Shown: positions 16,495 to 48,966 of the stretch, in pieces | Layout: each line of letters starts with the position of its first letter | Position numbering within the stretch: position 1 is the stretch's first letter | Origin: an uncultured Candidatus Saccharibacteria bacterium | GTDB taxonomy: Bacteria; Patescibacteriota; Saccharimonadia; Saccharimonadales; Saccharimonadaceae | NCBI GenBank assembly: GCA_963530635.1 | Contig: CAUSEJ010000001.1 | Span: 38,216 to 102,215, forward strand | DNA: 64,000 nt | Direction: 5' to 3' | Program-made: the position numbers and the translations under genes | Notes under the pieces: model-generated | Database searches by the model: none | Told to the model about the DNA's origin: nothing | The model's input: the letters and a program-made list of their open reading frames with translations, nothing else

Positions 16495-17363
16495 TGACCC
16501 CTGATATCTTTCATGGTAAGCATGTTATTGTCCAGGGTATAACTGGCAAACATGGCTCATTTCATACCGAGCGTATGTTGGCAAGTGGTACACATATCGT
16601 TGGCGGCACGTCACCCAACCAATCGGTTACAGAGGTGCACGGCGTGCCTGTCTTCCGGACGATTCGCGAAATTCAGGCGCAGCAGCCTGTCGATATTTCC
16701 GTCATTTTTGTGCCAGCAGCCTATGCCAAAGCAGCGATTATGGAAGCAATTGATGCAGAGGTGCCACTTATTATTTGCATTACCGAGGGTGTGCCTGTCC
16801 ACGATATGTTGCATATAAAACAACGCCTGGCAACCGGTTCTTCGATTTTGATTGGCCCCAACTGCCCTGGCGTCCTCATTCCTGGTGTGCACAACCTCGG
16901 CATCATCCCTGCTGCGCTCGCCACGCCGGGCCACACTGCCATCGTTAGCCGTAGCGGCACTCTCACCTACGAAGCAATGAGCCTCCTTACCCAGGCGGGG
17001 ATTGGCCAGCGCTATGTGATTGGGATTGGCGGCGATATGATTGGTGGCAGCAGCTTTATTGATTGCTTGCAATTGTTTGAACAGGATGCGGCGGTAGAGC
17101 AGATTGTGCTGATCGGTGAGATTGGTGGCACGAGCGAGATTGCCGCAGCAGATTATATTAAGCACAATATAAGCAAACCCGTCTATGCTTACATTGCGGG
17201 CCACAGTGCACCGCCTGGGGTGCAGATGGGCCATGCTGGGGCGATCCTTGGCACAAACAAGCTGGAGTCGGCCCAGGCCAAAACGGCACGGCTCGAGGCC
17301 AGTGGCGCAGTGGTGGCATCGTCCATCCAGTCGCTCATCGCGCTCATACCAACCAATAAGTGA
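16491..17363 (+). CDS. sucD: Succinyl-CoA synthetase-family alpha subunit
   Basis: VQGITGKHG, CITEGVP, IGPNCPG, SRSGTLTYE, phospho-His motif MGHAGA. Confidence 0.92.
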   Translation: MMTPDIFHGKHVIVQGITGKHGSFHTERMLASGTHIVGGTSPNQSVTEVHGVPVFRTIREIQAQQPVDISVIFVPAAYAKAAIMEAIDAEVPLIICITEGVPVHDMLHIKQRLATGSSILIGPNCPGVLIPGVHNLGIIPAALATPGHTAIVSRSGTLTYEAMSLLTQAGIGQRYVIGIGGDMIGGSSFIDCLQLFEQDAAVEQIVLIGEIGGTSEIAAADYIKHNISKPVYAYIAGHSAPPGVQMGHAGAILGTNKLESAQAKTARLEASGAVVASSIQSLIALIPTNK

Positions 17364-23361: not shown

Positions 23362-23486
23362 TTATCCACATTTGTTCGCGAGTTATCCACACTTTAACAG
23401 AGGTAATACATTTTTGTGGAAAAACTCCACCCCTGTTGCTCTTTTCGGGTTTACCCCGTTGTTGTATTTCTCACGGTTGTGGAAAA
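23362..23486. promoter_or_regulatory. DnaA-box cluster upstream of dnaA (oriC left part / autoregulation)
   Basis: Perfect TTATCCACA at 23362 and 23383; TGTGGAAAA at 23415 and 23478. Confidence 0.85.
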
Positions 23487-24930: not shown

Positions 24931-24954
24931 GCCGTGTGTTTTTTTCGCTGCGCC

Positions 24955-25200
24955 TGTGGAAAAGTCGTGTATAGTGAGCCGTATAACCAGCGGACAGTTC
25001 GGGGGCAGTCATCCACAGCACCAAAAGCACACCACCCTCCAGCCTCATTGGCTGGTGGATAACCGCCACTTCTCCCCGGCTTATCCACGCCAGCGATCGC
25101 AGCGTTTTGCACAAGTAGTGAGCAGGTCGTACCTCTGTTATTCATTATGGTTTCCACAGTATCCACAGCACCTATTACTAGATTAATCAGATAAAAAGAA
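24955..25200. other. oriC unwinding region: DnaA boxes plus DnaA-trio-like/AT-rich element
   Basis: Near-consensus boxes at 24955, 25009, 25054, 25081, 25150, 25159, then GCACC-TATTACTAG-ATTAATCAGATAAAAA. Confidence 0.8.
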
Positions 25201-25212
25201 AGGATTGTTGAT

Positions 25213-26313
25213 ATGAAACTGTCTGTCACACAAGAAAATCTTGCCCGGGCGCTCGGGGTTGTCGGGCGAGTTGCGAGCAACCGAGCTGGCCTGCCAATCT
25301 TAAATAATATACTATTCCGTACTGAGGGTAATCGCCTTCTCTTGGCTGCGACCAACCTAGAGATCGCCGCGACCTACTATATTGGTGCAAAGGTAGAGAC
25401 GCCGGGGGTGATTACCCTACCAGCCAAGCTCGTGAGCGAATTTGTGGCGAATTTGCCGAAGGGACCAATCGAGCTTGAGACCGATGGCACGCGTATGACA
25501 CTGACGTCTGGCGGGTACACTTCGACGATTAATGGCGTAGTAGCAGATGACTTTCCGGAGCTACCGACGATTGATGAAGAACAATCGGTACGCTATAGCA
25601 TTGCTGCTACGGACTTCAAGCAAGCGGCAGCGCAAACCTTGGTGACGTGTAGTAATGACACGACTCGGCCTGTTCTGACTGGTGTGTATTGGCATACAGT
25701 GGATGGTGCGCTGTATATGGCGGCGACGGATGGCTATCGCCTGGCTGAGCGGCGTTTGATGGCAAGCCAGAGTCAGATTGCGGCCATCGTGCCAGCGAGC
25801 AGCTTGCAAGAAGCGCTACGCTCACTCAGTGACGGCACGGAAGAAGTGGAGGTGCTCTTTGATGAGACGCAGGTGCGCTTTCGGTTAGAGGAAGTGGAGA
25901 TTACCAGCCGCTTAATCGATGGTACCTACCCAAATTATCGGCAGCTCATCCCTACTCAATCAGAGACAAACGTGACACTTGCAGCAGGCGATTTCTCGCG
26001 CGTAGTAAAGGTGGCAGGGCTCTTTGCGCGTGAGTCGGGTGGCAGTGTCACGCTTACCGCCGACCATGAGGCGCAGAAATTGCGGATTCACTCCGTTGCG
26101 TCCGAGCTGGGCGAAAATACCTCCGAGGCAGAGGCTGAGGTGTCGAGTGATGGGCAGATTACGCTCAATTCGCGGTACATTAGTGATGCACTGGGCGTTC
26201 TCGATGGCGAGACGATCACCTTCCGCTTTAGCGGTAAGCTCTCGCCCTGCGTCTTAACAGTGGCTCAGCCCGAGCCAAACTATATTCATATTATTATGCC
26301 ACTGAAGAGCTAG
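25213..26313 (+). CDS. dnaN: DNA polymerase III beta clamp
   Basis: LPILNNIL, ATNLEI, DDFP, TRPVLTGV, AATDGYRLAE, LIDGTYPNY, IIMPLK. Confidence 0.97.
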   Translation: MKLSVTQENLARALGVVGRVASNRAGLPILNNILFRTEGNRLLLAATNLEIAATYYIGAKVETPGVITLPAKLVSEFVANLPKGPIELETDGTRMTLTSGGYTSTINGVVADDFPELPTIDEEQSVRYSIAATDFKQAAAQTLVTCSNDTTRPVLTGVYWHTVDGALYMAATDGYRLAERRLMASQSQIAAIVPASSLQEALRSLSDGTEEVEVLFDETQVRFRLEEVEITSRLIDGTYPNYRQLIPTQSETNVTLAAGDFSRVVKVAGLFARESGGSVTLTADHEAQKLRIHSVASELGENTSEAEAEVSSDGQITLNSRYISDALGVLDGETITFRFSGKLSPCVLTVAQPEPNYIHIIMPLKS

Positions 26314-26315
26314 TG

Positions 26316-27314
26316 ATGAAGATAACGCGGCTAGCAGTGCAGCATGTGCGAATCCATACACTCAAGACACTTAACCTTGAGCCAGGTACGACGCTGATTT
26401 CTGGCCCAAATGGCTCTGGCAAGACATCACTTATCGAGGCGATCCATATTGCGCTGCGTGGTACCTCCTTTCGCGGTAGTGATGAATCGGTCTGTCAACA
26501 TGAACAAAAAAATTATACAATCGATCTCGCGACGGATGAGCAACATTACCGCGTCCAGTACGATCGCCGCCATGAGACGAAGCGCAAGCGTTTTATCGTT
26601 GATGGCACAACCTATGGTCGCCTTCCCTATGGCAAAAAATATCCGATCGTCCTCTTCGAGCCAGATACGCTGCGAATTATCACTGGCTCGCCGCAGCGTC
26701 GGCGCGATTTTCTTGATACACTCATCCAGCAATATGATGCACACTATAGCCACGAGCTGAGCCGCTACCACCGAGCACTACAACAACGCAATAAATTACT
26801 CAAAGACCCTACCCTCAGCGAGGCGGCACTTTTCTCGTGGAATCTTATCTTGAGTCAGTATGGTGCGTCGATCATTGCCAAGCGCCAGCGGGTGCTACAT
26901 TATCTTAGTGCAAAAAGCAGTGCTATGTACCAAAGTATTGCAGGCGTGGCGGATAGCGTTACGCTACACTACTCAGAGGAGCGCAGCATGACCGCGCAGC
27001 AACTCCTTGCCGAGTATGAGCAAAAAACGGCGTATGATACAGTGGTCGGCGCGACGAGTGTTGGGCCACACCGGCACGATATCACGGTGCTATTCCGAGG
27101 CAATCCGGCCGCCAAGACTGCATCCCGCGGTGAAATCCGCACCATTGTGCTCGCTCTCAAATTTCTCGAAGCAGCCTACATCCAGCAGCAAACAGGTCAA
27201 GCACCACTTATTCTACTCGACGATGTCTTTGGCGAGCTCGATCAGCAGCGCCAGCAGCGCCTCCTTAGCGAGTTCGTCGATAACCAGATCGTGATGACGA
27301 GTGCGGTGGGGTAG
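26316..27314 (+). CDS. recF: DNA replication/repair protein RecF
   Basis: GPNGSGKT, RRRDFLD, GPHRHD, ASRGE, LLDDVFGELD. Confidence 0.93.
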   Translation: MKITRLAVQHVRIHTLKTLNLEPGTTLISGPNGSGKTSLIEAIHIALRGTSFRGSDESVCQHEQKNYTIDLATDEQHYRVQYDRRHETKRKRFIVDGTTYGRLPYGKKYPIVLFEPDTLRIITGSPQRRRDFLDTLIQQYDAHYSHELSRYHRALQQRNKLLKDPTLSEAALFSWNLILSQYGASIIAKRQRVLHYLSAKSSAMYQSIAGVADSVTLHYSEERSMTAQQLLAEYEQKTAYDTVVGATSVGPHRHDITVLFRGNPAAKTASRGEIRTIVLALKFLEAAYIQQQTGQAPLILLDDVFGELDQQRQQRLLSEFVDNQIVMTSAVG

Positions 27315-27330: not shown

Positions 27331-28059
27331 TTATATATCAGTGTACATATAACACCATGGTGGGTTATTGCCGCCGCACGGAACAACACGCTTCTTTTCT
27401 AGCTCTTCGGCGGTGGGATATATTTTGCCATTGATTTTTATGTCGTATTTATCAATATCTTTGTCGTGTTTTTTAATATAGTTGAGGGCTTGGTCGACTT
27501 GCGATTGGCTCGTTTTGTCTGTTGTGACGATGCACACACCAAGCCGATTTGACCGGTCGGTCGTGCGGTATGGGTTGCAGGTAACAATATAAAACCAACG
27601 CGAGTAGTAAGGTAGTTTATTAATAAGAGGGCTCTCTTGAGATATCTTTGCTCCGCCTTGTGTTGCTTCGTGACCGCCGATTGCTTCGCGGATATCGTTG
27701 TATTTTTCCTTCTTCGCTTCTCTCTTTCCTTCCTCAGTTAGTGGATTCATGGCAAAGAATAGCTTCTTTTCTTCGCCTGGCTTGAGGTCTAGCTTGACCT
27801 GGTGGTCGGCAAAGCCCTTAGCTCGGAATGTGTAGGTGTACGACCCGCTCTTTACGGCGTGCTTTGTCCGCGTTGTTACCTTTTGGTCTTTGATCGTATC
27901 ATACGAGACAGTGAGGCTATCGGGGATAGCATAGACGAGGATAGTGCTATCGTATTTGAGATTATCAACAAAGCGATATATCGTAAAGGCAATCATACCA
28001 ACGGCAAGCAGGGCAAATAGTGCGATAATTTGGTTACGTTTTTGATTGAGCATTTCCAT
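27331..28059 (-). CDS. Membrane-anchored hypothetical (PEGA-like beta domain), last gene of T4SS-like cluster
   Basis: N-terminal TM; GSYTYTFRAKGFAD resembles PEGA; overlaps upstream hydrolase gene. Confidence 0.6.
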   Translation of the reverse strand: MEMLNQKRNQIIALFALLAVGMIAFTIYRFVDNLKYDSTILVYAIPDSLTVSYDTIKDQKVTTRTKHAVKSGSYTYTFRAKGFADHQVKLDLKPGEEKKLFFAMNPLTEEGKREAKKEKYNDIREAIGGHEATQGGAKISQESPLINKLPYYSRWFYIVTCNPYRTTDRSNRLGVCIVTTDKTSQSQVDQALNYIKKHDKDIDKYDIKINGKIYPTAEELEKKRVVPCGGNNPPWCYMYTDI

Positions 28060-29422
28060 TGACTGTCCTCGCTAATACAACACCCGGGTTTCCAAGCATC
28101 CACTCGACTGTCCCTTGTTTAATGTAGGTTGGTGAGTAATCAAATTGCGATGCCTGTGCACCAACAAATCCATTACCAAGGTCACCAGTATAGATAAGAG
28201 TATGACCTTGCCCATTATTATAAATTAGAATATCACCAGGTTGTAAGTCGGACATTCCAGGAGACTCTTTAGTATAGAATTTTTCTGGGTGGCTTAAGAC
28301 ATATGGGCGCTGAACTGCCGTTCCGGCTGGTGGATAATTCGGATCTGCCCCACTCATGCGCATCACTGTTGCAACGTATTTGCCGCAATCGGTGTAGTCA
28401 CCACCCGCTTCTGGGTTATACTGCTGACGGGCTTGTTTATACTCTGGTTTTGCACCATCACTGTCGACATGTCGTCCGTCCTCCCAGGCAAGACTCTTGG
28501 CTGTCTCGACAATTGATCCACCGGCGGCACTCTTGCTACCGTTTGCGGTACAGCCTGTGGCTGACGCATTTTGGGCGTTGGCGCCATTGTTATTGCCACC
28601 TTCGACTTGGATTTGGGATGAAGGCGGAGACAAGTTCTCTTCCTTGACAATTTGCTCAATCTTATCAATATATTCGGTGACAGTCGAGACATATTGGCTG
28701 TCGGTCGCATAGCCAGCATTTTTGATCTCCTGGAGGTATTTGCGCGGGTCGCCAGGATATTTGAGGGCTTCGCTATAGCGTGAGTTGCTAGTAATGAACT
28801 CGCCATAGCCAAGCCAGCCAGCCTCGACGGTAGGATATTTGCGAAAGCCATCAACGATCGTTGTCCGTCCAGAAGCGTATTCCTCCTCGGTCTCCATATC
28901 GATCACCTCACCCGACCAGTTCCCACCAGCCTTGATGCCGTGGAAGTTATTTGCTTTGACAGTAAGCCCAGATTTGCCATAGCCAGACTCAATAACTCCC
29001 TGGGCGAGGACTGTCTCGTATGGTGTGCCGTATTTTTTGTTTGTTTCGACAGCCATCTTGACATATTTGCGGACGAAGTCTTTGAGGTCTTCTGCTCCAG
29101 TGGCGCTACTGCCATCGCTACTGCTGGTGCTGCTGGTAGAGCAGGTTGCTGCGTCGGGGTCAAAATGCTCGATATAGTTGCCAGAAAAGAACCTTGCGTC
29201 TAAAGCTGAAGCAGGAGTTGATACGAGAGAGAATACTATCGCAAAAATAAGAGAACTTATTCGATAAATAGTGGTGCAGTGAGAAAAGAGTTGTGTTGAT
29301 GGAGAAAAAAGAGACGAAAAGCGAAGCAGTTGTTGGTGGGTGTATATTTGGCAGCGAGTAACAAACACACAAAGAGAGTAGAAACACTGAGCAAAAATAA
29401 CATGAGTCCACCGTATGATCAT
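28034..29422 (-). CDS. Peptidoglycan hydrolase: GH73 glucosaminidase plus NlpC/P60-CHAP-like domain
   Basis: AQGVIESGYG, NNFHGIKA, GYATD (GH73); DCGKYV...GHTLIY Cys/His; ATGA overlap with upstream stop. Confidence 0.85.
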   Translation of the reverse strand: MIIRWTHVIFAQCFYSLCVFVTRCQIYTHQQLLRFSSLFSPSTQLFSHCTTIYRISSLIFAIVFSLVSTPASALDARFFSGNYIEHFDPDAATCSTSSTSSSDGSSATGAEDLKDFVRKYVKMAVETNKKYGTPYETVLAQGVIESGYGKSGLTVKANNFHGIKAGGNWSGEVIDMETEEEYASGRTTIVDGFRKYPTVEAGWLGYGEFITSNSRYSEALKYPGDPRKYLQEIKNAGYATDSQYVSTVTEYIDKIEQIVKEENLSPPSSQIQVEGGNNNGANAQNASATGCTANGSKSAAGGSIVETAKSLAWEDGRHVDSDGAKPEYKQARQQYNPEAGGDYTDCGKYVATVMRMSGADPNYPPAGTAVQRPYVLSHPEKFYTKESPGMSDLQPGDILIYNNGQGHTLIYTGDLGNGFVGAQASQFDYSPTYIKQGTVEWMLGNPGVVLARTVNGNAQSKT

Positions 29423-32370
29423 GATGACCCTCCAACACGTCGAGCATACTCCCAGTGCCATGCCTCTGGTTTGCTGCCGTTTGGTTCGGCCCATTCGGGA
29501 TGGACGTAGCCGTATTTATGTGCATTGGCTTTGAGCCAATTGTAGGTAGAAGAGCCAAAGTCTCCCACGCTGATATCTGCTGCAAGCCCCCAGCCATGGT
29601 TGGAGCTACATGGTGGCGCTGGCTTGGCTCGACCACCTTGGTAGAGTGGATCACTTGGTGTTGCGTATGCGATTTGCCGTTGGCAGTCTCGGTATGCTTC
29701 ATTGATACCGAAATCGGCACCAGTTTCTGCTTTGTATGCTTTGTTCATTTCTTCCATAGCGGCCGCAGCTTGCTTGTGCATCCTCTCGCCGGACGAAAAT
29801 GACAGAGCTACCAAGTCGCCTTCTGCTAATTCACCGTTTTTAAGGCCGTTCCATGTTGATATAGAATCGCCACCTTCTGCAGCAGGCTGGGCTTGGTCAA
29901 ATTCTGGCTCCCCGACTGCCGGGCCGCTGGGGGTACTGCTACTAGATTGGCTTGCACCACCTCCACCAGAGATTGGTTCATTATCCATGGTGTCGACGAC
30001 GCGTTGGTCAATTGTGAAGAGTGCCGCATTGACTTTTTCTTCAGAGTCAAACTTGCAATAACCGGTATCGACACCGTTCTCGCCATCAGTACCTTTGCCG
30101 CACTTCTCTTGCCATTCTTTGAGCGTGCCGCCAGTTGCTTGGCCTGTTTCTTCGTTGTATTGCCCAGCGAGAGATTGGGCAACTTCGTCGGGATCTTTAT
30201 CGAGATTGAGCGCACCATACGATATATTACAAAATGGCCCAGCAGCGACATCCTTGGGGATATTTGGGTCATCGCATGCCTGCCAAATTTTTTTCATGCG
30301 ATCTGTCTCGGTATTAGCGCTTACTTTATTACCAAAGAAAGCCGGTACGATATTCTTAGGGAGCGACACAAGATTATGAACAAAACTACTAAGATTAGAA
30401 AAGCTGCCCATATATGGAATAAACGAACTGTAGAGACTTCCCATAAAGGTATATGGCGACGTTGCGTCAAATGGGCTCCGCTCAACGCGTTGCTCAGCAG
30501 CATAGGCAAGGTTGAGACGAGCCGTCTCTCGTTCGTAGGCGATTGTTTGGTCGACATTGAGCATACCATTACCGCCCGCCGCTGCTGCTTCAGAGAACAT
30601 ATTTACTGCACCACTCGTGAGGGCATCTCCAGCATCCTCGCCAACAGTAGCGCTGCTCACAAGGGTGCCCGCCATAGAATTTATGAGCTTACTGAGAATC
30701 GGAGCAAACACAGCAGAAATAACAGGAGCAGCTAAGTTTGAGACCAACTCACCGACGACACTTGTCCACCCACCAGCAACACTCATGAGAAGCTGGCCAC
30801 CAGTGCTATTGATGAGTTTGCAGGATGTCTTCAGTGCACTAATATTAGATCCTAAGGCATTAGCAACGCCGCTCATCTTCCGAGCCCAGCCACCACCAGG
30901 GACGTATTCCGTCCAGTTGGAGGTACCAGTTGGAGCTATTTCTTTCATTAGTCCATATTTAAGACCCATTCCATCAGTAGCTGCTTTTTTGGTTACGTTG
31001 CCAGATTTGTTGACGAGCACGGTGGTTAGAATCGTCCCAAGCACAGCAACAGCCATATAGTCTGTTGAGCCAGCCTTAATGTTGTCTGCCATTGTAAAGA
31101 ACATCATGGCATAGCTAATGACCTGTGTCATTTGGATGAGGCGAATTGTTTTACTAATAGATTGAGCGCCATCCTGTACCATACAGAGGCCGCCAGCAAT
31201 CATGGCAATAATATTACCAGTCTTGCCCACACCATTTTTGATAATATTGGCTGCTGCTTCTTTGCTGATAGATTTTGTTGCTCCTTCGGCACCTTCACTT
31301 ACTGCTTCTTTAGCGGCTTTGCCAACATCGGTGTCTTCAGTAACCTTTTCTTTGCCTTCATCGTCATTTTCCTTGGCTTCGTATTTACCATTCATTTCTT
31401 TGCCTTTGGTATTTTTGTCGATGCTTTCGCGGACTTCTTTCTCGCTTTTGGCGCCAGCGAGTTTGTTCTTCTTAGTAAGAGAGAATTTTTTTATGACGCC
31501 ATTATTAAATACTTTATCGAAGAAAGCCACCCAACGTGGTGCATATGCGCGGTGCATAATTGCTCTGAGCTCGGGTTTCTCATAATATAATTTTTTGAAA
31601 TCTTTGGCGCTAATTGTCTCCTGAGTGCCATTAGGGTAGGTGACACGCAGATTTTCAATTTTTTCACCAATTGTGGATTTTTTTGCATCAAACCCATCGG
31701 AAGCTTTGACGACATTCCCTTCCTTGTCGAGGGCTTCAACATTATTTTTTTCAAATTGCTTTAGCAGCCGATTTGAAACACGATTATAGCGGCATCGTAC
31801 ATTCACAACCGAACAAAGGCCATCGGTTGCAGTGTTTTGGATGCGCTTGAACATTACCTTATTAGCACGCCGCTCGAAGCTGGTATTTTGTGAATTCCAG
31901 TGGTTGGTGAGGTTTTCTTTGATATGGAGTAATAACAGACTTGGCCCACCAAAAAACGATATCATTGAACCACCACCAAGCAAAATAGCGCCAAGGATTC
32001 CCATTGGCCCACCTTTCTTAGAGAATATCGCACTCCGCGCCTTGGCAAAACGAGATTTGGGCTCAGAGAGTTTGCTGTCTGGTGGAACTACCTTGTTAAA
32101 CCAGTTGTTATCGCTCCAGTTGCTTCCCGGCGCGCCCTCCTGGCCTCGGACGGAGTCGGCGTAGTCGCTGCTGCCAGCGTTGCTGCGTGACGATGAGCCA
32201 CTCCCGCTATTCTCGCGTGACTGGAGGTCTTGGGCGGTGTTGGATTGGCTATGATTACCACTGCCAGCGTGATTATTCCGACCAGCAAAGGTATCGTTGC
32301 TCCAATGCGTATTCCCCGGATTATGCCGGTCGAGGTCGGGTTTTTGCTGGGAGGGGATGGGGGTAGGCAT
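29419..32370 (-). CDS. Large membrane-associated protein with C-terminal M15 (VanY-like) Zn peptidase
   Basis: INEAYR, SNHGWGLAAD (SxHxxGxAxD), EAWHWEY; central hydrophobic helices. Confidence 0.8.
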   Translation of the reverse strand: MPTPIPSQQKPDLDRHNPGNTHWSNDTFAGRNNHAGSGNHSQSNTAQDLQSRENSGSGSSSRSNAGSSDYADSVRGQEGAPGSNWSDNNWFNKVVPPDSKLSEPKSRFAKARSAIFSKKGGPMGILGAILLGGGSMISFFGGPSLLLLHIKENLTNHWNSQNTSFERRANKVMFKRIQNTATDGLCSVVNVRCRYNRVSNRLLKQFEKNNVEALDKEGNVVKASDGFDAKKSTIGEKIENLRVTYPNGTQETISAKDFKKLYYEKPELRAIMHRAYAPRWVAFFDKVFNNGVIKKFSLTKKNKLAGAKSEKEVRESIDKNTKGKEMNGKYEAKENDDEGKEKVTEDTDVGKAAKEAVSEGAEGATKSISKEAAANIIKNGVGKTGNIIAMIAGGLCMVQDGAQSISKTIRLIQMTQVISYAMMFFTMADNIKAGSTDYMAVAVLGTILTTVLVNKSGNVTKKAATDGMGLKYGLMKEIAPTGTSNWTEYVPGGGWARKMSGVANALGSNISALKTSCKLINSTGGQLLMSVAGGWTSVVGELVSNLAAPVISAVFAPILSKLINSMAGTLVSSATVGEDAGDALTSGAVNMFSEAAAAGGNGMLNVDQTIAYERETARLNLAYAAEQRVERSPFDATSPYTFMGSLYSSFIPYMGSFSNLSSFVHNLVSLPKNIVPAFFGNKVSANTETDRMKKIWQACDDPNIPKDVAAGPFCNISYGALNLDKDPDEVAQSLAGQYNEETGQATGGTLKEWQEKCGKGTDGENGVDTGYCKFDSEEKVNAALFTIDQRVVDTMDNEPISGGGGASQSSSSTPSGPAVGEPEFDQAQPAAEGGDSISTWNGLKNGELAEGDLVALSFSSGERMHKQAAAAMEEMNKAYKAETGADFGINEAYRDCQRQIAYATPSDPLYQGGRAKPAPPCSSNHGWGLAADISVGDFGSSTYNWLKANAHKYGYVHPEWAEPNGSKPEAWHWEYARRVGGSS

Positions 32371-32376
32371 GGTGGA

Positions 32377-34212
32377 CTACGACCTCACTGGTTGCTGGTA
32401 TAAGCTGTTATTGGCCACCGGGTTGGTGGTAATGAATTGCGTCTCAGTCTCGCTGGCGAAGATACGGATATGGACGTGGTTTTGACCCGCAAAGAAGAGG
32501 CCATCGCCCACAGGGAAGTTGGACAAGCGCTTACGTTCTTCCTCGGTGAGCTTAAAGACCTCTGCCAACACATCCACTGCACTGGTCGATTGCTTGAGCA
32601 AGAGCTGGAGCGAGCTGTTTGCTACAATAGCCCGGCCCTTCTCGCTCCCCATAAAGTCCTCCACATCCTGCGTGATGGTCGTCAAACCAAGAGAGTACTT
32701 ACGAGCTCGCTTGGCTAGGCTATGGAGAAACTCCGCTGAGTCTTCATACTTCATTAGCTGCCAGGCCTCATCGACGATCAGCATCCGCCGGCGCTGTACG
32801 GTGCGAGCGATATTCCAGATGTGGCTTAGCACAATATACATCGCTACTGGCCGCAGGTCGTCCTCGAGGTCGCGGATATTAAACACCACCATGCTGTTAT
32901 TAATATCAACATTGCTCTGCTGGCTAAAGATGCCAGCAAAGGTACCTGTGGTGTATTTGCGCAGGCGTTGAGCCAGTGACGGCCCTGCTCCACCCATGTG
33001 AAGGAGAGTATCGTAGAGGTCGATGATCGTCGGTGGCTGAGAATTATGTGTTAGTGGATCGCTGGTAATACCAGCTCGGGCGTAGGTATCGATGAGCGCT
33101 TGATCAAGGTCAGCCTCCTCAGCTGGGCTGAGCAAGGCAATCTGCTGCCCACCCACCAGTGTGCCGCCCAGCATAAGCTTGAAGAGTCGCTGCAGGGTGA
33201 TGAGGTTGGCGCGCAGGGCGTCGGTTGCTTCGTCACTGTCGATTACTCGGGGGAGGTCGAAGGGGTTAATTCGCGTATCGCTACTGAGGCTGAGGCGAAT
33301 GTAACTACCGCCGACTGCATCGGCCAGCTTTTGGTACTCGTTCTCTGGGTCGATGACGAGAATGTCGGTGCCAAGCATCATACTGCGCAGCGCCTCGAGC
33401 TTAACGGTAAAGGACTTACCAGCACCAGACTTTGCAAAGACGACCATATTCGCATTCTCAAGGCTAAAGCGGTCGAAGATGACCAGCCCTTGGTTGTGCT
33501 GGTTCACGCCGTAGAGAATACCCTCGCCGTCACTAAGGTCGGCACTGGTAAAGGGAAAGCTTGTGCTCACCGCACCAGTGTTCATGTTGCGGCGGACTTG
33601 CAGCTGGTCGGTCATTTGGGGGATGGTACTGTTGAGGCCTTGCTCTTGTTGGTTACTGGCAGTTTTGCTGTAGACCATATTTTGGCCAAAGATTGTCTCG
33701 ATAACATGCTGAACGAAGCTCAATTCCTCGAGGCTATCGGCATAAAGCGTGACGTAAAGCCCAAAGCGGAAGAAGCGCTCCGCTCCAAGCTGTAGCTGGT
33801 CGCGCAGCTCCTCGGCATCAGCCAGGGCGGCCTCGCGGGCTGGGTCACGCACCTTGCCTTTTTCGGAGTTAAGTGCCATATCGGCCTCAAGCTGCGTCAC
33901 CTTCTTGCGGAGGTTGTTGAGGACGATCTCTGTCTCGACAGGGTAAATAAACATGCTAATATCAAGCACTTGGTCGATGTTAATCAGCCCTGATAGCCAG
34001 CCTGTGTAGAGTTCACGCGGGTAGCCATAAATGTAGAGTGTGCGGCCATATTTGGTGCCGATGCGGAAGTACGTGCTGTGGATCTCGAGGCTGCTGGGGG
34101 CGATTAGGTCGCGCAGCGTCGTCATCCCCTTGATAAAGGCTTCTTCTACCTCTGCTTGCTCGCGCTCGCGCTGCTGGGCAGCAATGTCGATTGGATCAGG
34201 TCGTCGTGCCAT
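32377..34212 (-). CDS. virB4: VirB4/TraC-family T4SS ATPase
   Basis: Walker A AKSGAGKS, VIDPENEY, INPFD, Walker B LIVDEAW, RARKY, ITQDVEDF. Confidence 0.9.
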   Translation of the reverse strand: MARRPDPIDIAAQQREREQAEVEEAFIKGMTTLRDLIAPSSLEIHSTYFRIGTKYGRTLYIYGYPRELYTGWLSGLINIDQVLDISMFIYPVETEIVLNNLRKKVTQLEADMALNSEKGKVRDPAREAALADAEELRDQLQLGAERFFRFGLYVTLYADSLEELSFVQHVIETIFGQNMVYSKTASNQQEQGLNSTIPQMTDQLQVRRNMNTGAVSTSFPFTSADLSDGEGILYGVNQHNQGLVIFDRFSLENANMVVFAKSGAGKSFTVKLEALRSMMLGTDILVIDPENEYQKLADAVGGSYIRLSLSSDTRINPFDLPRVIDSDEATDALRANLITLQRLFKLMLGGTLVGGQQIALLSPAEEADLDQALIDTYARAGITSDPLTHNSQPPTIIDLYDTLLHMGGAGPSLAQRLRKYTTGTFAGIFSQQSNVDINNSMVVFNIRDLEDDLRPVAMYIVLSHIWNIARTVQRRRMLIVDEAWQLMKYEDSAEFLHSLAKRARKYSLGLTTITQDVEDFMGSEKGRAIVANSSLQLLLKQSTSAVDVLAEVFKLTEEERKRLSNFPVGDGLFFAGQNHVHIRIFASETETQFITTNPVANNSLYQQPVRS

Positions 34213-35171
34213 TAATAATCTCCTTTGTGATATGCTGTCGAGGTTGGGACGGCTCCCTCACCCTTGCGGACGAAGGTGGAAGTCACGTTATTAAAGTCGC
34301 CCAGGGGCTCGCGCACCGCCGTGTCGGGGTTGTACATGTTGTAATAGAGGGTGCCGAGCTCTTTGGTCTTGAGCTGCACTGCCCGCACACCAATCTGCAT
34401 CAAGCCATTGAGAATGGTGTCAGCCCGGTTGCGAATCTCCTCGCGGGCTCGCTCGTAGGTTTCTTTGCTAATCTTCGTCACGGTGTTGGTGTTCTTAGGG
34501 GCGAAGAGCTTCGTGAAGAACCCTTTACTCTGGTCGAGAATCGTCCCCTCCCCTGCTGGGTAATACGGGATGACGACGTAGAAGCTCTTGTCCATGATGT
34601 TGGCATTTTGCGAGAGGTCGTCGATGAAGTTGATATAGTCCTCCATTAGCACACTCAGCAGCATGTTGTCTTGGGTGCGCTGGATGGCAACGAGCTTATC
34701 CAAATACGGGCCAATATCGACCCGCTGCGAGCGGATGCAGATCTGCACTGGGAAGTACAGCGCATTGAGGAAGTTCTGGTAGCTATACTCCACCCCCTCG
34801 CGCTCACGAGCGCTCATCAGGTCGAAGTTAATCGACTCACAGGCGATGACGGCGCGGAAGCTGCCATCACCCATGATGATCATATCATCGCGCAGCTCCG
34901 AGAGGAGGAGGCTATTCTGCGTGGTGGCGGGCTTGGGTGGAGCCTTTTTCTTGGTGTCTTGAGTAGGCTGATCATTCGTATTACCCTGCACAGCTGGTGG
35001 CTGAGCCGGGGCTTGCACGGCGGGGTAATTGCCCTGCGGCGGAGCAGGATACTGTGGATAATTAGCTGGTACCTGGCCCGCTGGCACAGCGCCCTGGCCT
35101 TGGTTATAACCAAACTGGCTGGGTGGCCCAGCTGGTGGCTGTTGATTGTTGGGTGAATTTGGCGACACCAC
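34212..35171 (-). CDS. VirB4-associated protein (resembles VirB4 N-terminal part) with P/Q-rich N-tail
   Basis: SINFDLMSAREREGVEYSYQNFLNALYFPVQI; TAATG coupling to virB4. Confidence 0.7.
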   Translation of the reverse strand: MVSPNSPNNQQPPAGPPSQFGYNQGQGAVPAGQVPANYPQYPAPPQGNYPAVQAPAQPPAVQGNTNDQPTQDTKKKAPPKPATTQNSLLLSELRDDMIIMGDGSFRAVIACESINFDLMSAREREGVEYSYQNFLNALYFPVQICIRSQRVDIGPYLDKLVAIQRTQDNMLLSVLMEDYINFIDDLSQNANIMDKSFYVVIPYYPAGEGTILDQSKGFFTKLFAPKNTNTVTKISKETYERAREEIRNRADTILNGLMQIGVRAVQLKTKELGTLYYNMYNPDTAVREPLGDFNNVTSTFVRKGEGAVPTSTAYHKGDY

Positions 35172-35186
35172 TCTCCTTCTTATTTC

Positions 35187-37046
35187 TTAGCGCAAAGGGA
35201 TGACAATCTCATCATCGTCATCATCCTGACTGGCCTGCTCTTGATGTTGAATCCGGTTGGCTTCATTGGCAATGGCAGCAACGGACAAATCAGAGTTGCT
35301 GGCTAGTCTAATTATATCAGGCGAGACAGTGTTTGTGCTAGTGTTTGGCGGTAGATTGTTGCGTTGCTGGGCGAGCCGCTCCTCACGCAGGCGTTCCTCG
35401 CGCGTGGGGGTTGTCTTGGCGTAATAACTGGGGTCGAGCGGCTGGATGACTGACTGATGAATGCTCGGGTATGGGTTGTAGCGTACGGCCATATCGATGA
35501 CATTTTTATCATCAGCCAGTGCTGAGCGCTCTCGGTAAGACACTGCGGCTGGGGTGGGTGCGAGAGCTTGTGTGGTTTGGGCTGGTGCGACGGGTGGCTG
35601 CTGAGTTGGTACTGGCTGCTGGGGAGGGTGTGGCGTAGGAGTGTGTGGATAATTGGGAGTTGGTGCTGCTGGGGTCGGTTGCTCTGCAGGTGTTGAAGTG
35701 AACGATGGCCGAGTGTCGGCAGGAGGCGCTTCAGCTGGTGGGTCGCTGGGCATAGTTGTCGTACGCGCGGCTGACTTTTGGGGTGGTACAAGCGGCACGG
35801 CATCGGTGGTGGGAGTGGCGTGCTGGCGCAGGTTGGCATAGATTGCCTCGAAGGATGGTATTTCTTTTGGCTTAGACTCTGGCGCAGCTTCTACTGTGGG
35901 CTTGGGCGGCGTGTAGGGTTTGCTCAGGGCATCGGGCAAGACCGAATCATGTGGAATAACGGCGGGCAGTGCCATTGGCAGAGATTGAAGCGTGTCACGC
36001 TCTCGCGGCATAGGCTGCGGCTCGGCAGCAGGCGTTTCGTCACGCAACGCATCATCCACTGGCGAGAGCTCGTATACCTCGGTAGATTGCTGAGGTGGGT
36101 ATGAGTTTGGTTGGTTTTGGTAGGCGCTAGTATCGGGTAAAGGAGCTTGCTGATGCGACGACGCAGTGCGGTTCTCAGGAAAGCTCGTGGACGAATACGA
36201 CACCGCTGGGCGCTGAGACTCTGGTGCTGGGTATGGCGGCTCAGGCATACGAGGCTGAGGTGGTGATACTGGCGCAAAGCCAGTGGCATCAATGGGTGGC
36301 TGGTACGGAGGTGTAGCCTGTGGTGGAGTATTTGGAGCTGCTTGCGGTGCTGCCTGGTATGGCTGCGGCTGAGCCTGTGGCCAAGCTGGCTGATATGGCA
36401 CGGGAGCTTGCTGGAGCGGTTGCCCGTCAGCTACGGCGGGTAGCGCCGCTGGTGGAGCCTGCATGCGCTCGATGGCGGCTCGGCGCCGAGCTTGGTTGGA
36501 TTGCTCGATGCGCCGCGTCATTGCTCGCGCTTCGCTACTGTTATCATCAAACATATCCGAGGTCTGCTGCGCCTCGAAGTATACATCACTAATCATCGAC
36601 CCCTGTGCATCGGGCACGCGGGTGTGGCGAATGGACCAGCCATGAGTATCGGCCAGCTGCGACAAGTATGCTAGGCGGCGCTCGGCCTCGTCTTGGCTGA
36701 GGTTCTTCGTCCGCTCGATCTCCACCTTCTCGGGTACTGTAATCTCGATGAGCGAATTAATGCCATCGGGCTGCCACATGCGCCGGCGTGGCTTGGTGTA
36801 GAATGATACCACCGCCGCGAGGTAAACCTCCATTGGCTGGTCCTTGCGCAGTGGCAGAGCTAGCGCACCAAATAATAGGATAATTGGCACTGGAATAACC
36901 GCCAGCGGCAAAAACACTTGCGACAATCCCCACGCCAACGCAATTCCTGCCGCCGCAACCAGCAGATAAATAAACTGGCGAAAGCTAAACGGCCCAAGAA
37001 TCTTATCCTCTGCCTCTACATCCTGTGCAACCTTATATCTCGACAT
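35187..37046 (-). CDS. PrgI-family (VirB3-like) protein with long P/Q/T-rich tail
   Basis: YKVAQDVEAEDKILGPFSFRQFIY followed by 2 TMs; upstream of virB4. Confidence 0.8.
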   Translation of the reverse strand: MSRYKVAQDVEAEDKILGPFSFRQFIYLLVAAAGIALAWGLSQVFLPLAVIPVPIILLFGALALPLRKDQPMEVYLAAVVSFYTKPRRRMWQPDGINSLIEITVPEKVEIERTKNLSQDEAERRLAYLSQLADTHGWSIRHTRVPDAQGSMISDVYFEAQQTSDMFDDNSSEARAMTRRIEQSNQARRRAAIERMQAPPAALPAVADGQPLQQAPVPYQPAWPQAQPQPYQAAPQAAPNTPPQATPPYQPPIDATGFAPVSPPQPRMPEPPYPAPESQRPAVSYSSTSFPENRTASSHQQAPLPDTSAYQNQPNSYPPQQSTEVYELSPVDDALRDETPAAEPQPMPRERDTLQSLPMALPAVIPHDSVLPDALSKPYTPPKPTVEAAPESKPKEIPSFEAIYANLRQHATPTTDAVPLVPPQKSAARTTTMPSDPPAEAPPADTRPSFTSTPAEQPTPAAPTPNYPHTPTPHPPQQPVPTQQPPVAPAQTTQALAPTPAAVSYRERSALADDKNVIDMAVRYNPYPSIHQSVIQPLDPSYYAKTTPTREERLREERLAQQRNNLPPNTSTNTVSPDIIRLASNSDLSVAAIANEANRIQHQEQASQDDDDDEIVIPLR

Positions 37047-37132
37047 AGTCTATGTATTTATTATAGCATGAGGGGGATAGATAGACAGTAAAGATGAGTG
37101 ATCGGTATTCTTTATAGAAGCAAGAGAGGATA

Positions 37133-39883
37133 TTAGATATCTTTCCATTTTCTCATTGCTTGTGCGTGATTGTTTACCATTGGATTACCAAGAATTTCTG
37201 GAGATAATTCTGGCGAATTAAGAGCAGCCTCGACAGCTTGTCCTGTTGATTTGCGTGCATCGAAAAGATCATCATAGCTAACACGTGGGTCTTTTGAGTG
37301 TCTTTTGTTGAGAGCTTCATGTAGATTCCTTGCTGCAGCTCCATCCATTTGTGCGACTTTAGACGCAGTAATTTTGCCAGCTTTTGCTGCATCAGTAACA
37401 GCTTTGTCAAAAGTGAAGCTACCAGACTCAATATCGGCAATTGCACGGCCTGTAAGCCAAGGGTTCTTGCTTGCGGCACCTGATTTTTGAAGACCCTCCG
37501 CTAATGTCTGGAGATCAAATGCATCGAGGTTTGATTTAGGCTCCATAGCCATTTCAGCAAGTTCTTTCAGCTGATCAGAATTTGCACCCTTACCTGCTCG
37601 ATCGAGAATAAAGCGTCTGTCATGTTTAGACATTTTAGCGCCATTAAGCACTTCCACGAGCTCACCTTTTTTATTTCTGCCCATTATTTTTCCACCTTGT
37701 GCAAGTGTGAAGTAGTCAGCTTGTGTAAGTACTTGTTGTTTACCGGCTGCATTTGTGTACTCTATGTTTTCGTATTTTGCTTCAGCGAGGTCCATTTCCT
37801 CTTTTGACTGCTGTTTTATAATATTGGCAGCATTCCCTTGGGCGCGTCGAGCTGTTTCTCCAATAGCCCCTGGGACTCTCCCGGCTATATTGTTGATACC
37901 GCCCATTGTTTTACTTCTTGCATTTCTGACCCAGTTTGTGGGGATCCAGTTAGAACCTCTATAGGTGCCCGCTTGTATTTGTGCCCGCCTACGCTCTTTG
38001 TTTCGTTTACGAGTGGCCATAAGTTGCCCATACATAGAATTATCTAGTCCAGACTGCAACTTCTTCTCAGTAGCTTTGCCAGCCAAGTTGCCCCACTTAT
38101 CAGCAATATTTGCTAGCCCCATCATTGAGGTCATAAGGCTTGTTAGGCGAGAGACTAAGAGGAGTGGGGTGAAGGTAAGAGCGGCAGCAATAATCTGTAG
38201 TAATACAGGTGATTCACCCTTCATACCATTAATGACCGTTGCCCCCAGATTGCATGCACCATAGAGTAAGCCAATTGCTGGATAGAGAAAGAGGAGTGTC
38301 TTGAAGAAGCCCCACCACTTCTTAAATAACCCTTCGGTACTTGGTAATAGCAGTGCTACAAAAGCAAGCGGCGATAGAATAATAGTAAAGATAACCAACG
38401 CTTGCCGTGCACCAAGAAGGAATACTGTAATAGTTGCAGTAACAACGACAAAAACAAGACCAGAAATAAGAGTACCTAACACAAAGAAAGCTGTAGCAGT
38501 ACCTAGAACGGTAGCAGCAGCACCCGTCCACCAGTTTCCTTTCGTTGCCCAGCCACCTTCTGGGCCGCTCCCGCCACCACCGAGTGAAGTAATGAAATTG
38601 AATGACGATGACCCAATAATATTAGAGATATCAACAAGAATACTACATATATAGAAAGATATATTGACGAGGACAATAGTCATAAGTAGCTTTGGTAAAA
38701 GCTTTTTAATGCCATAGTTGCTAATGCCAAGACCACTAACCTGCGAGTAGATGATGATCAAGAAAACAATAATAAAGACAATATTGGCAATGTCTCGAAT
38801 GCGCGACCAATAGTAGAAGGCAGAATCGGGGCCACGATCTGTGAGTATGATGGAATTGACTTCAAGCAACTTTGCCAAAATACCTGCAGAATCGTCTGAG
38901 ATATCGGCAAGGAGATTAACAACGGGGCAGATGAGCCAGCCAACACCATCGATAGCGCAGCGTGATTTGGATTCTTCCTTATCTTCGCCATCACCTTGCT
39001 GGGCAGATTCGCCTGTTCCAGCATCTACCTTGTTAGCATTCTTATCATCAGGGCTATTCTTGTTCTTGTTTGCATCATCAGATTTCTTTTTATTTTTTTC
39101 AGCTGCCTTGATCGCGGCTTGCGCATTTTTTGTAACAGTACTAGCTTTTAATCTACACGTATTTGTGGAAATGGAACCAGTCGTACTGTATTTAGCGATA
39201 GTCTTTTTGATAACATCGTTACCATTGGCATCTTTGCCAATTTTATCGTAAGATATAAATCCATCTTGACCTTTATCTGCTGCTCCCGCTTGAGAGTTGC
39301 TAAACTGAGATCGATCAGCTTCTCCTGATACAGGACAAGAAGTTGTAAAATCTTTGTAACTATAGCTATATAACTCACCAAGCCCAAGATAATCCGAAGC
39401 CCTGTTGTTTCCATCAATTCCTAGTTTTTTTCTAATAGCTTGATCAACACCAGCTTGTACACCACGTGTAGCGCCCCACCAGCCGTCCTTATTTACGTAA
39501 CCTGCTTGAGTTAGAAAATCCTCCGCATCCTTAAAGCCCCATAAAGGGATACCTTCTTCATAGATATCAGAACATCTTTTTTTCTCGCCATCAACCATAC
39601 CCTTAGCGTGCCCAAGACCGCTGCCACCCACTCTTGTTTTGCTAACATCTACAGCCCTAATATAGTCTATACCATCAAAGCAGCCAGTTTCTTTGAATCT
39701 TCCGGGCTCTTTATCTGTTTCATAACCTTGCTGTGCTCTATAGAGTGTCCACGCTCTTATTTTTTTATCATGATCATCAGCATAAGCCTTTTGGTCTATA
39801 AACACACTAGAACTAAGTACAAGAATAATAGCTAATGGAAAGAGTGAAAAGCGCTTTAGCTTAGATACAAGAGAGTTTGTCAT
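37133..39883 (-). CDS. VirB6/TrbL-like polytopic membrane protein with large N-terminal extracellular domain
   Basis: Signal peptide; W..IRDIAN..FI, IKKLLPKL...VLVNISFYIC, R......ILSPLAFVALLLP...FKKWW. Confidence 0.7.
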   Translation of the reverse strand: MTNSLVSKLKRFSLFPLAIILVLSSSVFIDQKAYADDHDKKIRAWTLYRAQQGYETDKEPGRFKETGCFDGIDYIRAVDVSKTRVGGSGLGHAKGMVDGEKKRCSDIYEEGIPLWGFKDAEDFLTQAGYVNKDGWWGATRGVQAGVDQAIRKKLGIDGNNRASDYLGLGELYSYSYKDFTTSCPVSGEADRSQFSNSQAGAADKGQDGFISYDKIGKDANGNDVIKKTIAKYSTTGSISTNTCRLKASTVTKNAQAAIKAAEKNKKKSDDANKNKNSPDDKNANKVDAGTGESAQQGDGEDKEESKSRCAIDGVGWLICPVVNLLADISDDSAGILAKLLEVNSIILTDRGPDSAFYYWSRIRDIANIVFIIVFLIIIYSQVSGLGISNYGIKKLLPKLLMTIVLVNISFYICSILVDISNIIGSSSFNFITSLGGGGSGPEGGWATKGNWWTGAAATVLGTATAFFVLGTLISGLVFVVVTATITVFLLGARQALVIFTIILSPLAFVALLLPSTEGLFKKWWGFFKTLLFLYPAIGLLYGACNLGATVINGMKGESPVLLQIIAAALTFTPLLLVSRLTSLMTSMMGLANIADKWGNLAGKATEKKLQSGLDNSMYGQLMATRKRNKERRRAQIQAGTYRGSNWIPTNWVRNARSKTMGGINNIAGRVPGAIGETARRAQGNAANIIKQQSKEEMDLAEAKYENIEYTNAAGKQQVLTQADYFTLAQGGKIMGRNKKGELVEVLNGAKMSKHDRRFILDRAGKGANSDQLKELAEMAMEPKSNLDAFDLQTLAEGLQKSGAASKNPWLTGRAIADIESGSFTFDKAVTDAAKAGKITASKVAQMDGAAARNLHEALNKRHSKDPRVSYDDLFDARKSTGQAVEAALNSPELSPEILGNPMVNNHAQAMRKWKDI

Positions 39884-39980: not shown

Positions 39981-41111
39981 TTATTCTTCGACGTCGTTGA
40001 GAGGCGCGGTAATCTCTGGTTTGATAGCGTGAGCCTCATCGCTTTTGGTGTCTGTTGGATAAAAGTAAGACACTCGAGGGAATGGATATTCCGTGTACTG
40101 GCCCGTCTTTCGATCGTTTTTAGTTATTTTCCTTTTAGTCTCAATAACTGTGTAGTATGTTTTGTTCTTATCTCCTACCTCTTGCACCTCACAATATGCT
40201 GCCGAATATACCTGGGGTTGATTGGTTTCTTTGCCATCATTGATCGGGAATGGGTCTTCGTATTCTGCCATGATCGCACACTTCGTAACGCGGAGAGCAA
40301 TGCGGTCTTCTTCCTTCGGTTTTTTGCCTTTCGTATGAGCTTCATCAGCGGCTTCGACAAGGCGGCCATAATAACCATGGGGTTTAAATTTATTTTTGTC
40401 ACTGTCATCTTTATTCTCATCATTGGAATCTCTGACGATATTAGAGTGTGGGACGTCTATATAATCGGCCAAACATTGCAGCACTGGCCATGCGTTGACT
40501 TCTCTACCATCTGCATTTGTGAATAAAGCCTTTGACTGAGCATCATCACAGAGATCACGGAAAAGTCGATCAACATTATCACACCACGCAATTGCCAACT
40601 CTTTTGACTGGTCAGCACGTGACTCGGTAAGAATTGTCATGACCTCTGGTTTTAGGTTATTACCAAAGAAGGTTTTACACGCAAGCCCTTTGTCATAATC
40701 ACTCATTGTTTTCCACTTTTCAGAGTCAAACTCACTAAGATTCGCGAAGTTATACGACCGGCGAGGTTCGGGCCGCTCATTGCTTGGTGCGCCAGGCTCC
40801 ACAGGCTCTTGTGTAGGTGATGAAGTTTCTGTCGCTGTGGCAGATGGGGTTGCTTCTGGGCTCGAGCTTGGAGACTCTGATGGTGAGGGTGTTTCTGAAG
40901 CAATATTATTCTCAGCAGAACCACGCCCAGCAAGGAACGCTATACTTGCTGCGGCAGCAACAGCAGCGGCACCAGCACTTAAAGCACCTATAAGAGTCCG
41001 TCGATCAACAACTCCTTCTCCGTCTTTGTTTTGTTGAGTGGCGGCACCGCTGAATATTTCGGGCTCGCTAGGCTCAGAATTTGCCGGATAGCTGTCATGT
41101 CTGTTTATCAT
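39981..41111 (-). CDS. Hypothetical membrane-anchored/secreted protein with S/P/T/E linker
   Basis: GGAGG RBS before ATG 41111; DRRTLIG followed by hydrophobic helix. Confidence 0.7.
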   Translation of the reverse strand: MINRHDSYPANSEPSEPEIFSGAATQQNKDGEGVVDRRTLIGALSAGAAAVAAAASIAFLAGRGSAENNIASETPSPSESPSSSPEATPSATATETSSPTQEPVEPGAPSNERPEPRRSYNFANLSEFDSEKWKTMSDYDKGLACKTFFGNNLKPEVMTILTESRADQSKELAIAWCDNVDRLFRDLCDDAQSKALFTNADGREVNAWPVLQCLADYIDVPHSNIVRDSNDENKDDSDKNKFKPHGYYGRLVEAADEAHTKGKKPKEEDRIALRVTKCAIMAEYEDPFPINDGKETNQPQVYSAAYCEVQEVGDKNKTYYTVIETKRKITKNDRKTGQYTEYPFPRVSYFYPTDTKSDEAHAIKPEITAPLNDVEE

Positions 41112-41547
41112 AAGCTTCAATCCTCCCCAATACAGGATTAGTGGTTATGTGTGCTTATTATCTGCGCACTTGCGTTTCATGCTACCATTGTTTGCGCGGC
41201 AGGTCAAATATTTTTTGGCCTCTGTTGAGGAAAATAGATAGCGAGCATAGACAGAGGTTACTATAGAAATATATTCGAACGATATTTTTTGGTAAAAAAT
41301 AAGAGATATTTTATACATATTGCATGATGGATGAAATATGATGGCTCGAATACGAGAAATTGGCCCTCAGCTATGTAGATATGATGATACCCTGTCCCTA
41401 TTATTAAAAAATATAGTTACACAAATTAACAATATACCTAATAAATACTCTGATAAGCTACATAATTTACACTAACAAACCACCACATATCCGAATCGCC
41501 TATATATATTGCCACCCCACCCCATATCCGCTATAATACAGAGGTAC

Positions 41548-48755: not shown

Positions 48756-48966
48756 GACACATATTATACCACTTTTGGTAGTATTTAAAACCATGAGCTG
48801 ATCCTATCTATAGGAGTATCGACCTCTGATCGTCTCAGCAAAAGGAATGAAAGAAAAGAGCTTGAGAGTAGGTTAGCTCTTGAGGTTCAAACTCATGCAA
48901 TTTGATTTTTTATTATCACACTACTCTCTCATCTTCCTTGCTCTGCTATTCTGCTATAATAACTTT

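Follow-up and report, generated by a model that had tools for sequence, protein, structure and literature searches.

The stretch of DNA analysed here, called the window below, comprises 64,000 nucleotides (bases 38216-102215) of the genome of an uncultured Candidatus Saccharibacteria bacterium, a 99% complete single contig of 1.00 Mb. Seven co-oriented minus-strand open reading frames (ORFs) occupy window positions 27331-39883, and these encode core proteins of a type IV secretion system (T4SS) followed by cell wall enzymes (Table 1). The same gene set had been described in an initial annotation of the sequence, and both the ORF list and the profile matches confirm it. An eighth co-oriented ORF of 379 residues, at 39981-41120, had been omitted. 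The VirB4 ATPase possesses both Walker A and Walker B motifs, is of the FATA type and has TrsD and PrgI as neighbours, in agreement with the annotated likeness to Gram-positive conjugation machinery, which was already known in Patescibacteria. VirB6-1 gave no match in Pfam or NCBIfam and was assigned from its hydropathy profile, its syntenic position, the existence of a paralogue and a weak resemblance to a protein that itself matches TrbL. The PrgI-like protein (619 residues) contains a Pro/Gln-rich insertion of about 320 residues which is missing in most relatives (300-360 residues).

The distal genes are tightly coupled, as had been annotated: a TAATG overlap forms the trsD/virB4 junction and an ATGA overlap the M15/GH73 junction, the GH73 and PEGA genes overlap by 26 nt, and the gap from virB4 to the M15 gene is 6 nt. 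Only 16 bp separate the end of the cluster from the stop codon of the convergent recF. The genome-wide GC-skew minimum falls at window position 25177, between dnaA and dnaN, and DnaA boxes at 23362-23478, 24955 and 25105 flank dnaA on both sides, which establishes the position directly after recF and beside oriC. A promoter and terminator scan of the locus gave signals at about chance level. Outside the window, a VirB2-like array of six pilins lies at G000:C1:105650-108334 (G000 being this genome), and together with a second VirB6 (VirB6-2) it spans G000:C1:105650-111557, about 28 kb past the cluster. A lone T4SS-type pilin (PF18895) is found at window 58510-59049 and is 94-98% conserved in 13 sister genomes.

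Table 1. Features of the T4SS locus and its origin-side neighbours, in window coordinates (TM, transmembrane segment).
Feature	Position	Strand	Details
379-aa single-TM protein	39981..41120	-	Upstream of virB6-1; positional equivalent of SEML1_0012
VirB6-1, extended VirB6-like	37133..39883	-	Signal and 5 predicted TM; hypervariable, 25-36% identity between allele groups
PrgI/VirB3-like	35187..37046	-	PF12666, E 4e-12, residues 5-90; long Pro-rich insertion
TrsD-like VirB4 N-terminal partner	34212..35171	-	NF041427, weak, E 5e-5
VirB4 ATPase, CD1110/FATA type	32377..34212	-	NF045971, 381 bits (cut-off 325)
983-aa protein with C-terminal M15B/VanY domain	29419..32370	-	Profile match PF02557
Stalk part of 983-aa protein	29971..32370	-	Polar tail, TM at residues 123-141, Cys-containing unnamed family of ~660 aa
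Swappable tip of 983-aa protein	29419..29820	-	M15B Zn peptidase, VanY/LdcB-like; motifs AYR, SNHGWGLAAD and EAWH intact
GH73 + Cys-His hydrolase	28034..29422	-	Signal-like stretch, N-terminal tag FFSGNYIEHFDP...C, GH73, NlpC/P60-like (DCG...GH)
PEGA/Ig-like single-TM protein	27331..28059	-	Travels with the hydrolase gene
dnaA-dnaN-recF with oriC signals	23548..27314	+	Context, outside the machine

Matched parts around an invariant motor

The locus was compared in 14 sister genomes, this one included, which share one VirB4 protein and are mostly drafts of one genus. VirB4 is identical in all of them despite 336 variable nucleotides. The flanks of the locus are about 90-95% identical, and common breakpoints lie near window positions 27310, 29970, 32300 and 37078. 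VirB6-1 divides the genomes into groups A, B and C (8, 3 and 3 genomes), with identities of 25-36% between groups and 51-100% within them; the 379-residue ORF is replaced along with virB6-1 in groups B and C. The stalk part of the 983-residue protein also forms groups (25-59% identity between, 92-99% within), and these coincide with the VirB6-1 groups in 14/14 genomes, which would have a chance of 3e-5 if the two were independent and relatedness is ignored. The 4.7 kb between VirB6-1 and the stalk is ungrouped (7.6% within versus 7.5% between, p=0.84), and ten segments of this interval gave p values of 0.20-0.99.

The pilins provided a test that was independent of how the groups had been defined. 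Thirteen of the 14 arrays were compared, the array of G024 being off the fetched contig. In 13/13 arrays pilins 1-5 follow A, B and C, such that at each position the lowest within-group identity is above the highest between-group identity, and five pilin segments gave p <= 0.003. Pilin 6 is 90-100% identical throughout and ungrouped. No grouping was detected for VirB6-2, the Mur ligase, tsaD, FemAB and nine far segments (p 0.055-0.80); conserved in all 13 are VirB6-2 (95-98%), an adhesin-like protein (96-99%), FemAB (92-97%) and the Mur ligase (92-96%). In a second lineage of three genomes, the stalk again agrees with the orthologue of VirB6-1 and with an ORF taken as a pilin by size only. The pair of hydrolase and PEGA genes has crossed the groups in two of the 14 genomes (L002, L045). 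An apparent counterexample among other relatives (L067/L071) vanished on a quick tree (support 82 and 93), from which the VirB6-1 of the window was excluded by a length filter.

The PrgI-TrsD-VirB4 motor is invariant and is flanked by replaceable parts. Three matched types exist of the set formed by pilins 1-5, VirB6-1 and the stalk, and the enzyme tip and the hydrolase-PEGA pair are exchanged separately. We found no published description of such types in a search that left the tables of Nie et al. (2022) and the supplements of a 2025 survey outside its range. The locus itself is known, and the matched types are possibly a new addition to it.

Wall enzymes and their exchange between relatives

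The GH73 domain matched PF01832 with 98.6 bits against a cut-off of 30.2, and ES-G and YATD, which we take to be the GH73 motifs, are intact. The Cys-His domain scored 15-17 bits against CHAP (PF05257), under the cut-off of 26. Among 24 homologues, 21 matched NLPC_P60 and 3 matched CHAP, all of them weakly and the NlpC/P60 matches also below cut-off, and the top matches in PDB were MepS/Spr. Members of the NlpC/P60 family are more typically endopeptidases than amidases. Because both the homologues and the PDB matches favour NlpC/P60, the domain is probably NlpC/P60-like and an endopeptidase is likelier than the amidase originally called. In the M15B domain the zinc-binding and catalytic motifs are intact and the one profile match is PF02557; its PDB matches are D,D-carboxypeptidases and YodJ. 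Neither a PF13539 match nor Ply500 or CwlK as the closest structure, which would point to a lytic M15C enzyme, was obtained for it. Its predicted activity is the trimming of stem peptides, as in the VanY/LdcB carboxypeptidases, and may not be lytic. The three wall-lytic activities proposed initially were thus overstated: the GH73 and Cys-His domains are real, and M15B is closest to trimming carboxypeptidases, so that we predict two probable lytic domains (GH73 and NlpC/P60-like) and an uncertain third. Nor does the trio distinguish this locus. Among 80 complete modules, counted after removal of 3 duplicates and 1 near-duplicate, M15B, GH73 and Cys-His occur together exactly as here in 8, and PrgK, the VirB1 of the ordinary conjugative system of pCF10, likewise has three hydrolase domains.

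The large protein ends in an M15B domain in 23 of these 80 modules and in M23 in 14; in the rest its tip is C39-like, GDSL, unnamed or absent. The second gene combines a GH73, phage-tail lysozyme, amidase, GH3 or GDSL domain with one of the NlpC/P60-like, C39-like, CHAP or M23 kind. The stalk belongs to a family of 2317 representatives; it had no Pfam or PDB match, and ESM Atlas returned nothing at or above 0.9. The top 150 homologues carry tips that include M23 (32), M15B (24) and none (15). Pfam profiles run on 44 of the 72 tips that lacked an assignment or a name added CHAP (9), NlpC/P60 (6), EEP (6), M23 (4) and alginate lyase (1); some tips, namely GDSL, EEP and one alginate lyase, are therefore non-peptidoglycan enzymes. 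The alginate-lyase domain (PF08787) is at the end of homologue P0096. Where VirB5 has a cleavable signal peptide, the 983-residue protein has a transmembrane segment at residues 123-141. The idea that this protein is the tip of a pilus was downgraded on account of its N-terminal membrane anchor.

Near its N-terminus the GH73 protein has a signal-like stretch and then a short tag. The strict pattern of the tag is present in 28 of 71 equivalent hydrolases, whatever their catalytic domain, and most of the others look alike by eye. The ATGA start gives this protein an odd leader of 49 residues (29273-29422) before the signal-like stretch, and its real start is uncertain. Since the N-terminus resembles a signal peptide, the hydrolase can be read as a Sec-exported, VirB1-type part; the GH73 and 983-residue proteins are likely exported components of this type and not cytoplasmic or injected effectors. 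The PEGA protein matched only saccharibacterial PEGA clusters in ESM Atlas, and its single-sequence structure model was unusable (predicted local distance difference test, pLDDT, of 38). Across loci, the small downstream gene tracks the last catalytic domain of the hydrolase: a PEGA family gene follows the NlpC/P60-like domain in 34 of 39 loci, and a different small-gene family follows the C39-like domain in 10 of 14. The PEGA protein is a candidate anchor or inhibitor of the hydrolase, and the pairing may also be adjacency alone.

A resident locus of the order

virB4 is present in 40 of 41 genomes and in 32/32 of those at least 90% complete, and VirB4 is 69-100% identical to its order-wide orthologues. 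Comparison of the relatives' main virB4 loci, 5 of 39 being left out for short contigs, gave the synteny data that the initial annotation had called for: the virB4 module runs into recF or dnaN in 83 of 114 relatives' loci, and 18 end too soon to tell. Seven relaxase families (PF03432, PF13814, PF08751, PF03389, PF01076, PF02486 and PF07514) were unfound in this genome by profile searches, each of which carried a control that gave signal. VirD4-like genes occur only at C1:788346-791219 and C1:956766-959819, far from the T4SS. The sole tyrosine recombinase lies at 210 kb, 130 kb from the cluster, and no att-like direct repeat was seen flanking the cluster. These data bear out the view that the system is domesticated and not mobile, and the linked relaxase or integrase with patchy distribution that would mark an ordinary mobile element did not emerge from the genome-wide searches. 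Of the absences annotated for the window, those of relaxase, VirD4 and att sites stood, and that of an integrase did not. Next to tRNA-Arg at 63477-64000 (G000:C1:101692-102810), about 23 kb from the cluster, lies the C-terminal part of a large serine integrase (match to phrog_95 at E 1e-10, covering profile positions 382-559 of 651), apparently a remnant that has nothing to do with the cluster.

An ordinary integrative conjugative element (ICE) inserted beside recF would account for the FATA-type VirB4 with PrgI and TrsD, for a tRNA-Ser upstream of the cluster and for the two VirD4-like genes elsewhere in the genome. It would not account for presence in nearly all genomes at a constant position across the order, for the distance of the only tyrosine recombinase, or for the lack of any of the seven relaxase families and of an att-like repeat in a genome that is 99% complete; moreover, the true ICE-like virB4 loci of relatives differ in having a linked VirD4. 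We therefore rejected an ICE on the grounds of distribution, fixed oriC position and unfound relaxases, and regard it as highly improbable.

Those ICE-like loci constitute a second type of virB4 (37-40% identity), patchily present in 6 of 41 genomes (L035-L040, for instance in G039:C2, G031:C3, G022:C24 and G001:C7). This second T4SS comprises a pilin-VirB6 fusion, PrgI, TrsD and VirB4, with a 178-residue CHAP protein in the one locus tested for it. The four loci scanned have a linked VirD4 and cargo of metal-transport or ABC-3C-like genes; no relaxase was seen among the ORFs scanned. The VirD4-like gene at C1:788346-791219 adjoins parA and parB. In loci L093-L120, several of which are gut or rumen records, the stalk gene is often absent right after virB4, judging by ORF size only, and the recF link is often lost. 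A PIN/ribbon-helix-helix toxin-antitoxin pair separates the module from recF in one relative (L029:5075-5751). Elsewhere in the window, positions 133-20660 hold a surface-polysaccharide cluster with glycosyltransferases, a Wzm/Wzt-type ABC transporter, RmlD and a ChW-repeat protein, interrupted by succinyl-CoA-ligase-like subunits (15427-17363). A Mur ligase gene and two FemAB-family genes lie at 47337-53125, so that the organism probably builds its own wall with peptide bridges.

Proposed role and its alternatives

The locus matches that of Candidatus Southlakia epibionticum gene for gene, is inherited vertically at oriC and has no relaxase that we could find. The explanation that we favour, if by a modest degree, is a chromosomal T4SS of Saccharibacteria that builds a VirB2-type pilus or conduit to an actinobacterial host, while its enzymes clear peptidoglycan along the way, at least partly that of the host. 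VirB4 would drive the assembly of pilins on VirB6-1. The membrane-anchored stalk protein would join the same assembly and hold its peptidase some 660 residues out, and the Sec-exported GH73/NlpC-P60 enzyme would dock by its conserved N-terminal tag and be held or restrained by the PEGA protein. Because VirB6 binds both pilins and a tip protein in a solved T4SS, we read VirB6-1, pilins 1-5 and the stalk protein as what may be a single outward-facing assembly on the invariant motor, whose part types would be selected by mutual fit together with the host surface. The enzymes may act on the host wall, an idea that gains some indirect backing from their exchange between families beside constant genes for the cell's own wall and from a published conduit seen by electron cryotomography (cryoET). 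It is tempting to go further and to speak of pilotypes: five pilins, VirB6-1 and the 660-residue stalk, matched and kept together by selection although the 35 kb of chromosome that they span recombines, that would build the barbed conduit known from cryoET and carry a mix-and-match enzyme cassette with its cognate partner, pilotype and cassette together setting which host envelope is pierced. This wider proposal is tentative, and the cryoET conduit and barb are assigned to these genes by inference.

Several observations weigh against this explanation. In thirteen relatives' loci with at least 8.9 kb of downstream sequence the module does not run into recF or dnaN, and in several of these no large gene follows virB4 either. 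The stalk protein is membrane-anchored at its N-terminus, unlike a free pilus tip, and the M15B domain may only trim peptides. Over 69 loci the partial rho of VirB6 versus stalk was 0.02, with the nearest VirB6 used and paralogues mixed, and when hydrolase domain and next gene were compared on independent pairs, which were too few, the association did not reach significance (median p 0.5). The matched types were also seen mostly in drafts from a single genus, and there two of five dnaN-recF segments gave p of about 0.04 for the A/B/C groups, and one indel is common to this genome and 4 of the 7 other A genomes and to none of the 6 B and C genomes. Some clonal structure therefore remains. The types, though not the rest of the explanation, could on this account be a neutral relic of three old clonal frames in which small recombination tracts have homogenised the ordinary genes, large divergent blocks having been too dissimilar for replacement. 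Such a history leans on the resistance of divergent blocks to homologous recombination; it draws on the weak residual signal just mentioned and on the hydrolase/PEGA block, whose distribution agrees with A, B and C in 12 of 14 genomes. That same block did cross groups twice, however, the DNA directly flanking the pilins is ungrouped, and other polymorphic blocks, including one with three alleles, divide the genomes across A, B and C (by eye, from hit coordinates). We consider the relic rather unlikely.

The target of the enzymes can be questioned too. In the same machine the hydrolases could be ordinary self-directed VirB1-type assembly enzymes that open only the producer's own wall; they would then vary because their functions are interchangeable or because phages or host defences are being evaded. 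The wall of the producing cell is the usual substrate of VirB1-type enzymes, this genome has peptidoglycan genes for a wall of its own, and the signal peptide and membrane anchor fit a VirB1 topology. Published work offers parallels: the three-domain PrgK serves the donor's own T4SS, the VanY-superfamily protein TagX opens the producer's own wall for a type VI secretion system, and hosts sense epibionts and mount a defence, so that escape could drive equal enzyme diversity. Yet the second, ICE-like T4SS of relatives manages with a 178-residue CHAP protein, the tip can also be a GDSL, EEP or alginate-lyase domain, and genomes with nearly constant wall-synthesis enzymes (FemAB 92-97%, Mur ligase 92-96%) differ in hydrolase family, which would fit a variable substrate outside the cell. 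We hold the self-directed role to be a serious possibility, though the lesser one. Other Saccharibacteria might instead be the target, in DNA exchange among kin or in antagonism, the part types being marks of self and non-self and the PEGA proteins immunity factors. The enzyme with its adjacent small gene does resemble an effector-immunity pair, and in S. epibionticum the small genes count among the essential ones. Against this stand the essentiality of the whole machine in single-strain co-culture, where neither antagonism nor gene exchange would require it, the lack of a detected relaxase, and the chance that the pairing reflects adjacency; we think a kin target improbable.

In a perspective from 2024, what this essential T4SS does was described as 'completely unknown'. 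If real, the matched types point to which VirB6 paralogue and which five of the six pilins likely cooperate, flag the large unnamed stalk family as a structural part, and supply natural alleles for swap tests in a genetically tractable epibiont.

Comparison with known systems

The published counterpart is the T4SS locus SEML1_0004-0019 of Candidatus Southlakia epibionticum ML1 (Wang et al., 2023; PMC10633639). By transposon sequencing its genes are essential for growth on the host except SEML1_0012; it has two VirB6-like genes and six pilins, and the authors remark on the absence of a linked coupling protein and relaxase. That genome also has a lone pilin, non-essential (SEML1_0024). SEML1_0005-0011 follow dnaA-dnaN-recF on the opposite strand in the same order as here, namely PEGA, hydrolase, M15B, VirB4, a gene in the TrsD position (293 residues), PrgI and VirB6. 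In contrast to Southlakia, whose hydrolase has lysozyme-like and cysteine-proteinase parts and three domains in all, the enzyme here has two (GH73 and NlpC/P60-like), and is followed by one small gene instead of two; the second VirB6 and the six-pilin array are displaced here by about 28 kb. At a wider scale, Quinonero-Coronel et al. (2025; PMC12102498) described a T4SS clade of the candidate phyla radiation, near dnaA and nested in MPF-FATA, with a peptidase and a lysozyme downstream of virB4, relaxases rare and the type IV coupling protein usually distant. Our locus resembles this clade in its VirB4, TrsD, PrgI, VirB6 and pilin arrays near dnaA; the main text of that survey describes neither strain-level cassette exchange nor matched pilin, VirB6 and stalk types. 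Nutrient or effector translocation had already been proposed for the system (McLean et al., 2020), and the idea of a pilus conduit is repeated in a review. The core claim of the initial annotation is hence a rediscovery, since the oriC position, the missing relaxase, the hydrolases behind virB4 and the effector or nutrient idea are all in print.

The pCF10 system is mobile and has a relaxase and a coupling protein. It shares with our locus the FATA core and a membrane-anchored multi-domain wall hydrolase (PrgK) with a partner protein (PrgL), and differs in having one hydrolase gene. The M23-like, muramidase and CHAP domains of PrgK include a single one, the muramidase, that is active in vitro (PMC11323569). 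In cryoET of another saccharibacterium, a conduit of 8.6 nm and 61 nm into the host and a barbed lance were seen, without genes being named in the passages that describe them. Host range differs among strains of one species and does not follow phylogeny, and one T4SS-secreted protein is listed among variable core genes (Nie et al., 2022). The coupling between VirB6-1, pilins and stalk protein has its parallel in VirB6, VirB2 and VirB5 of the R388 T4SS, in which VirB6 recruits the pilins, carries the tip protein and co-evolves with both (PMC9259494). Unlike the VirB5 of R388, the 660-residue stalk is membrane-anchored, and sequence searches gave no likeness to VirB5. Gram-positive T4SS also assemble VirB2-like pilins on VirB6, as would the machine proposed here.

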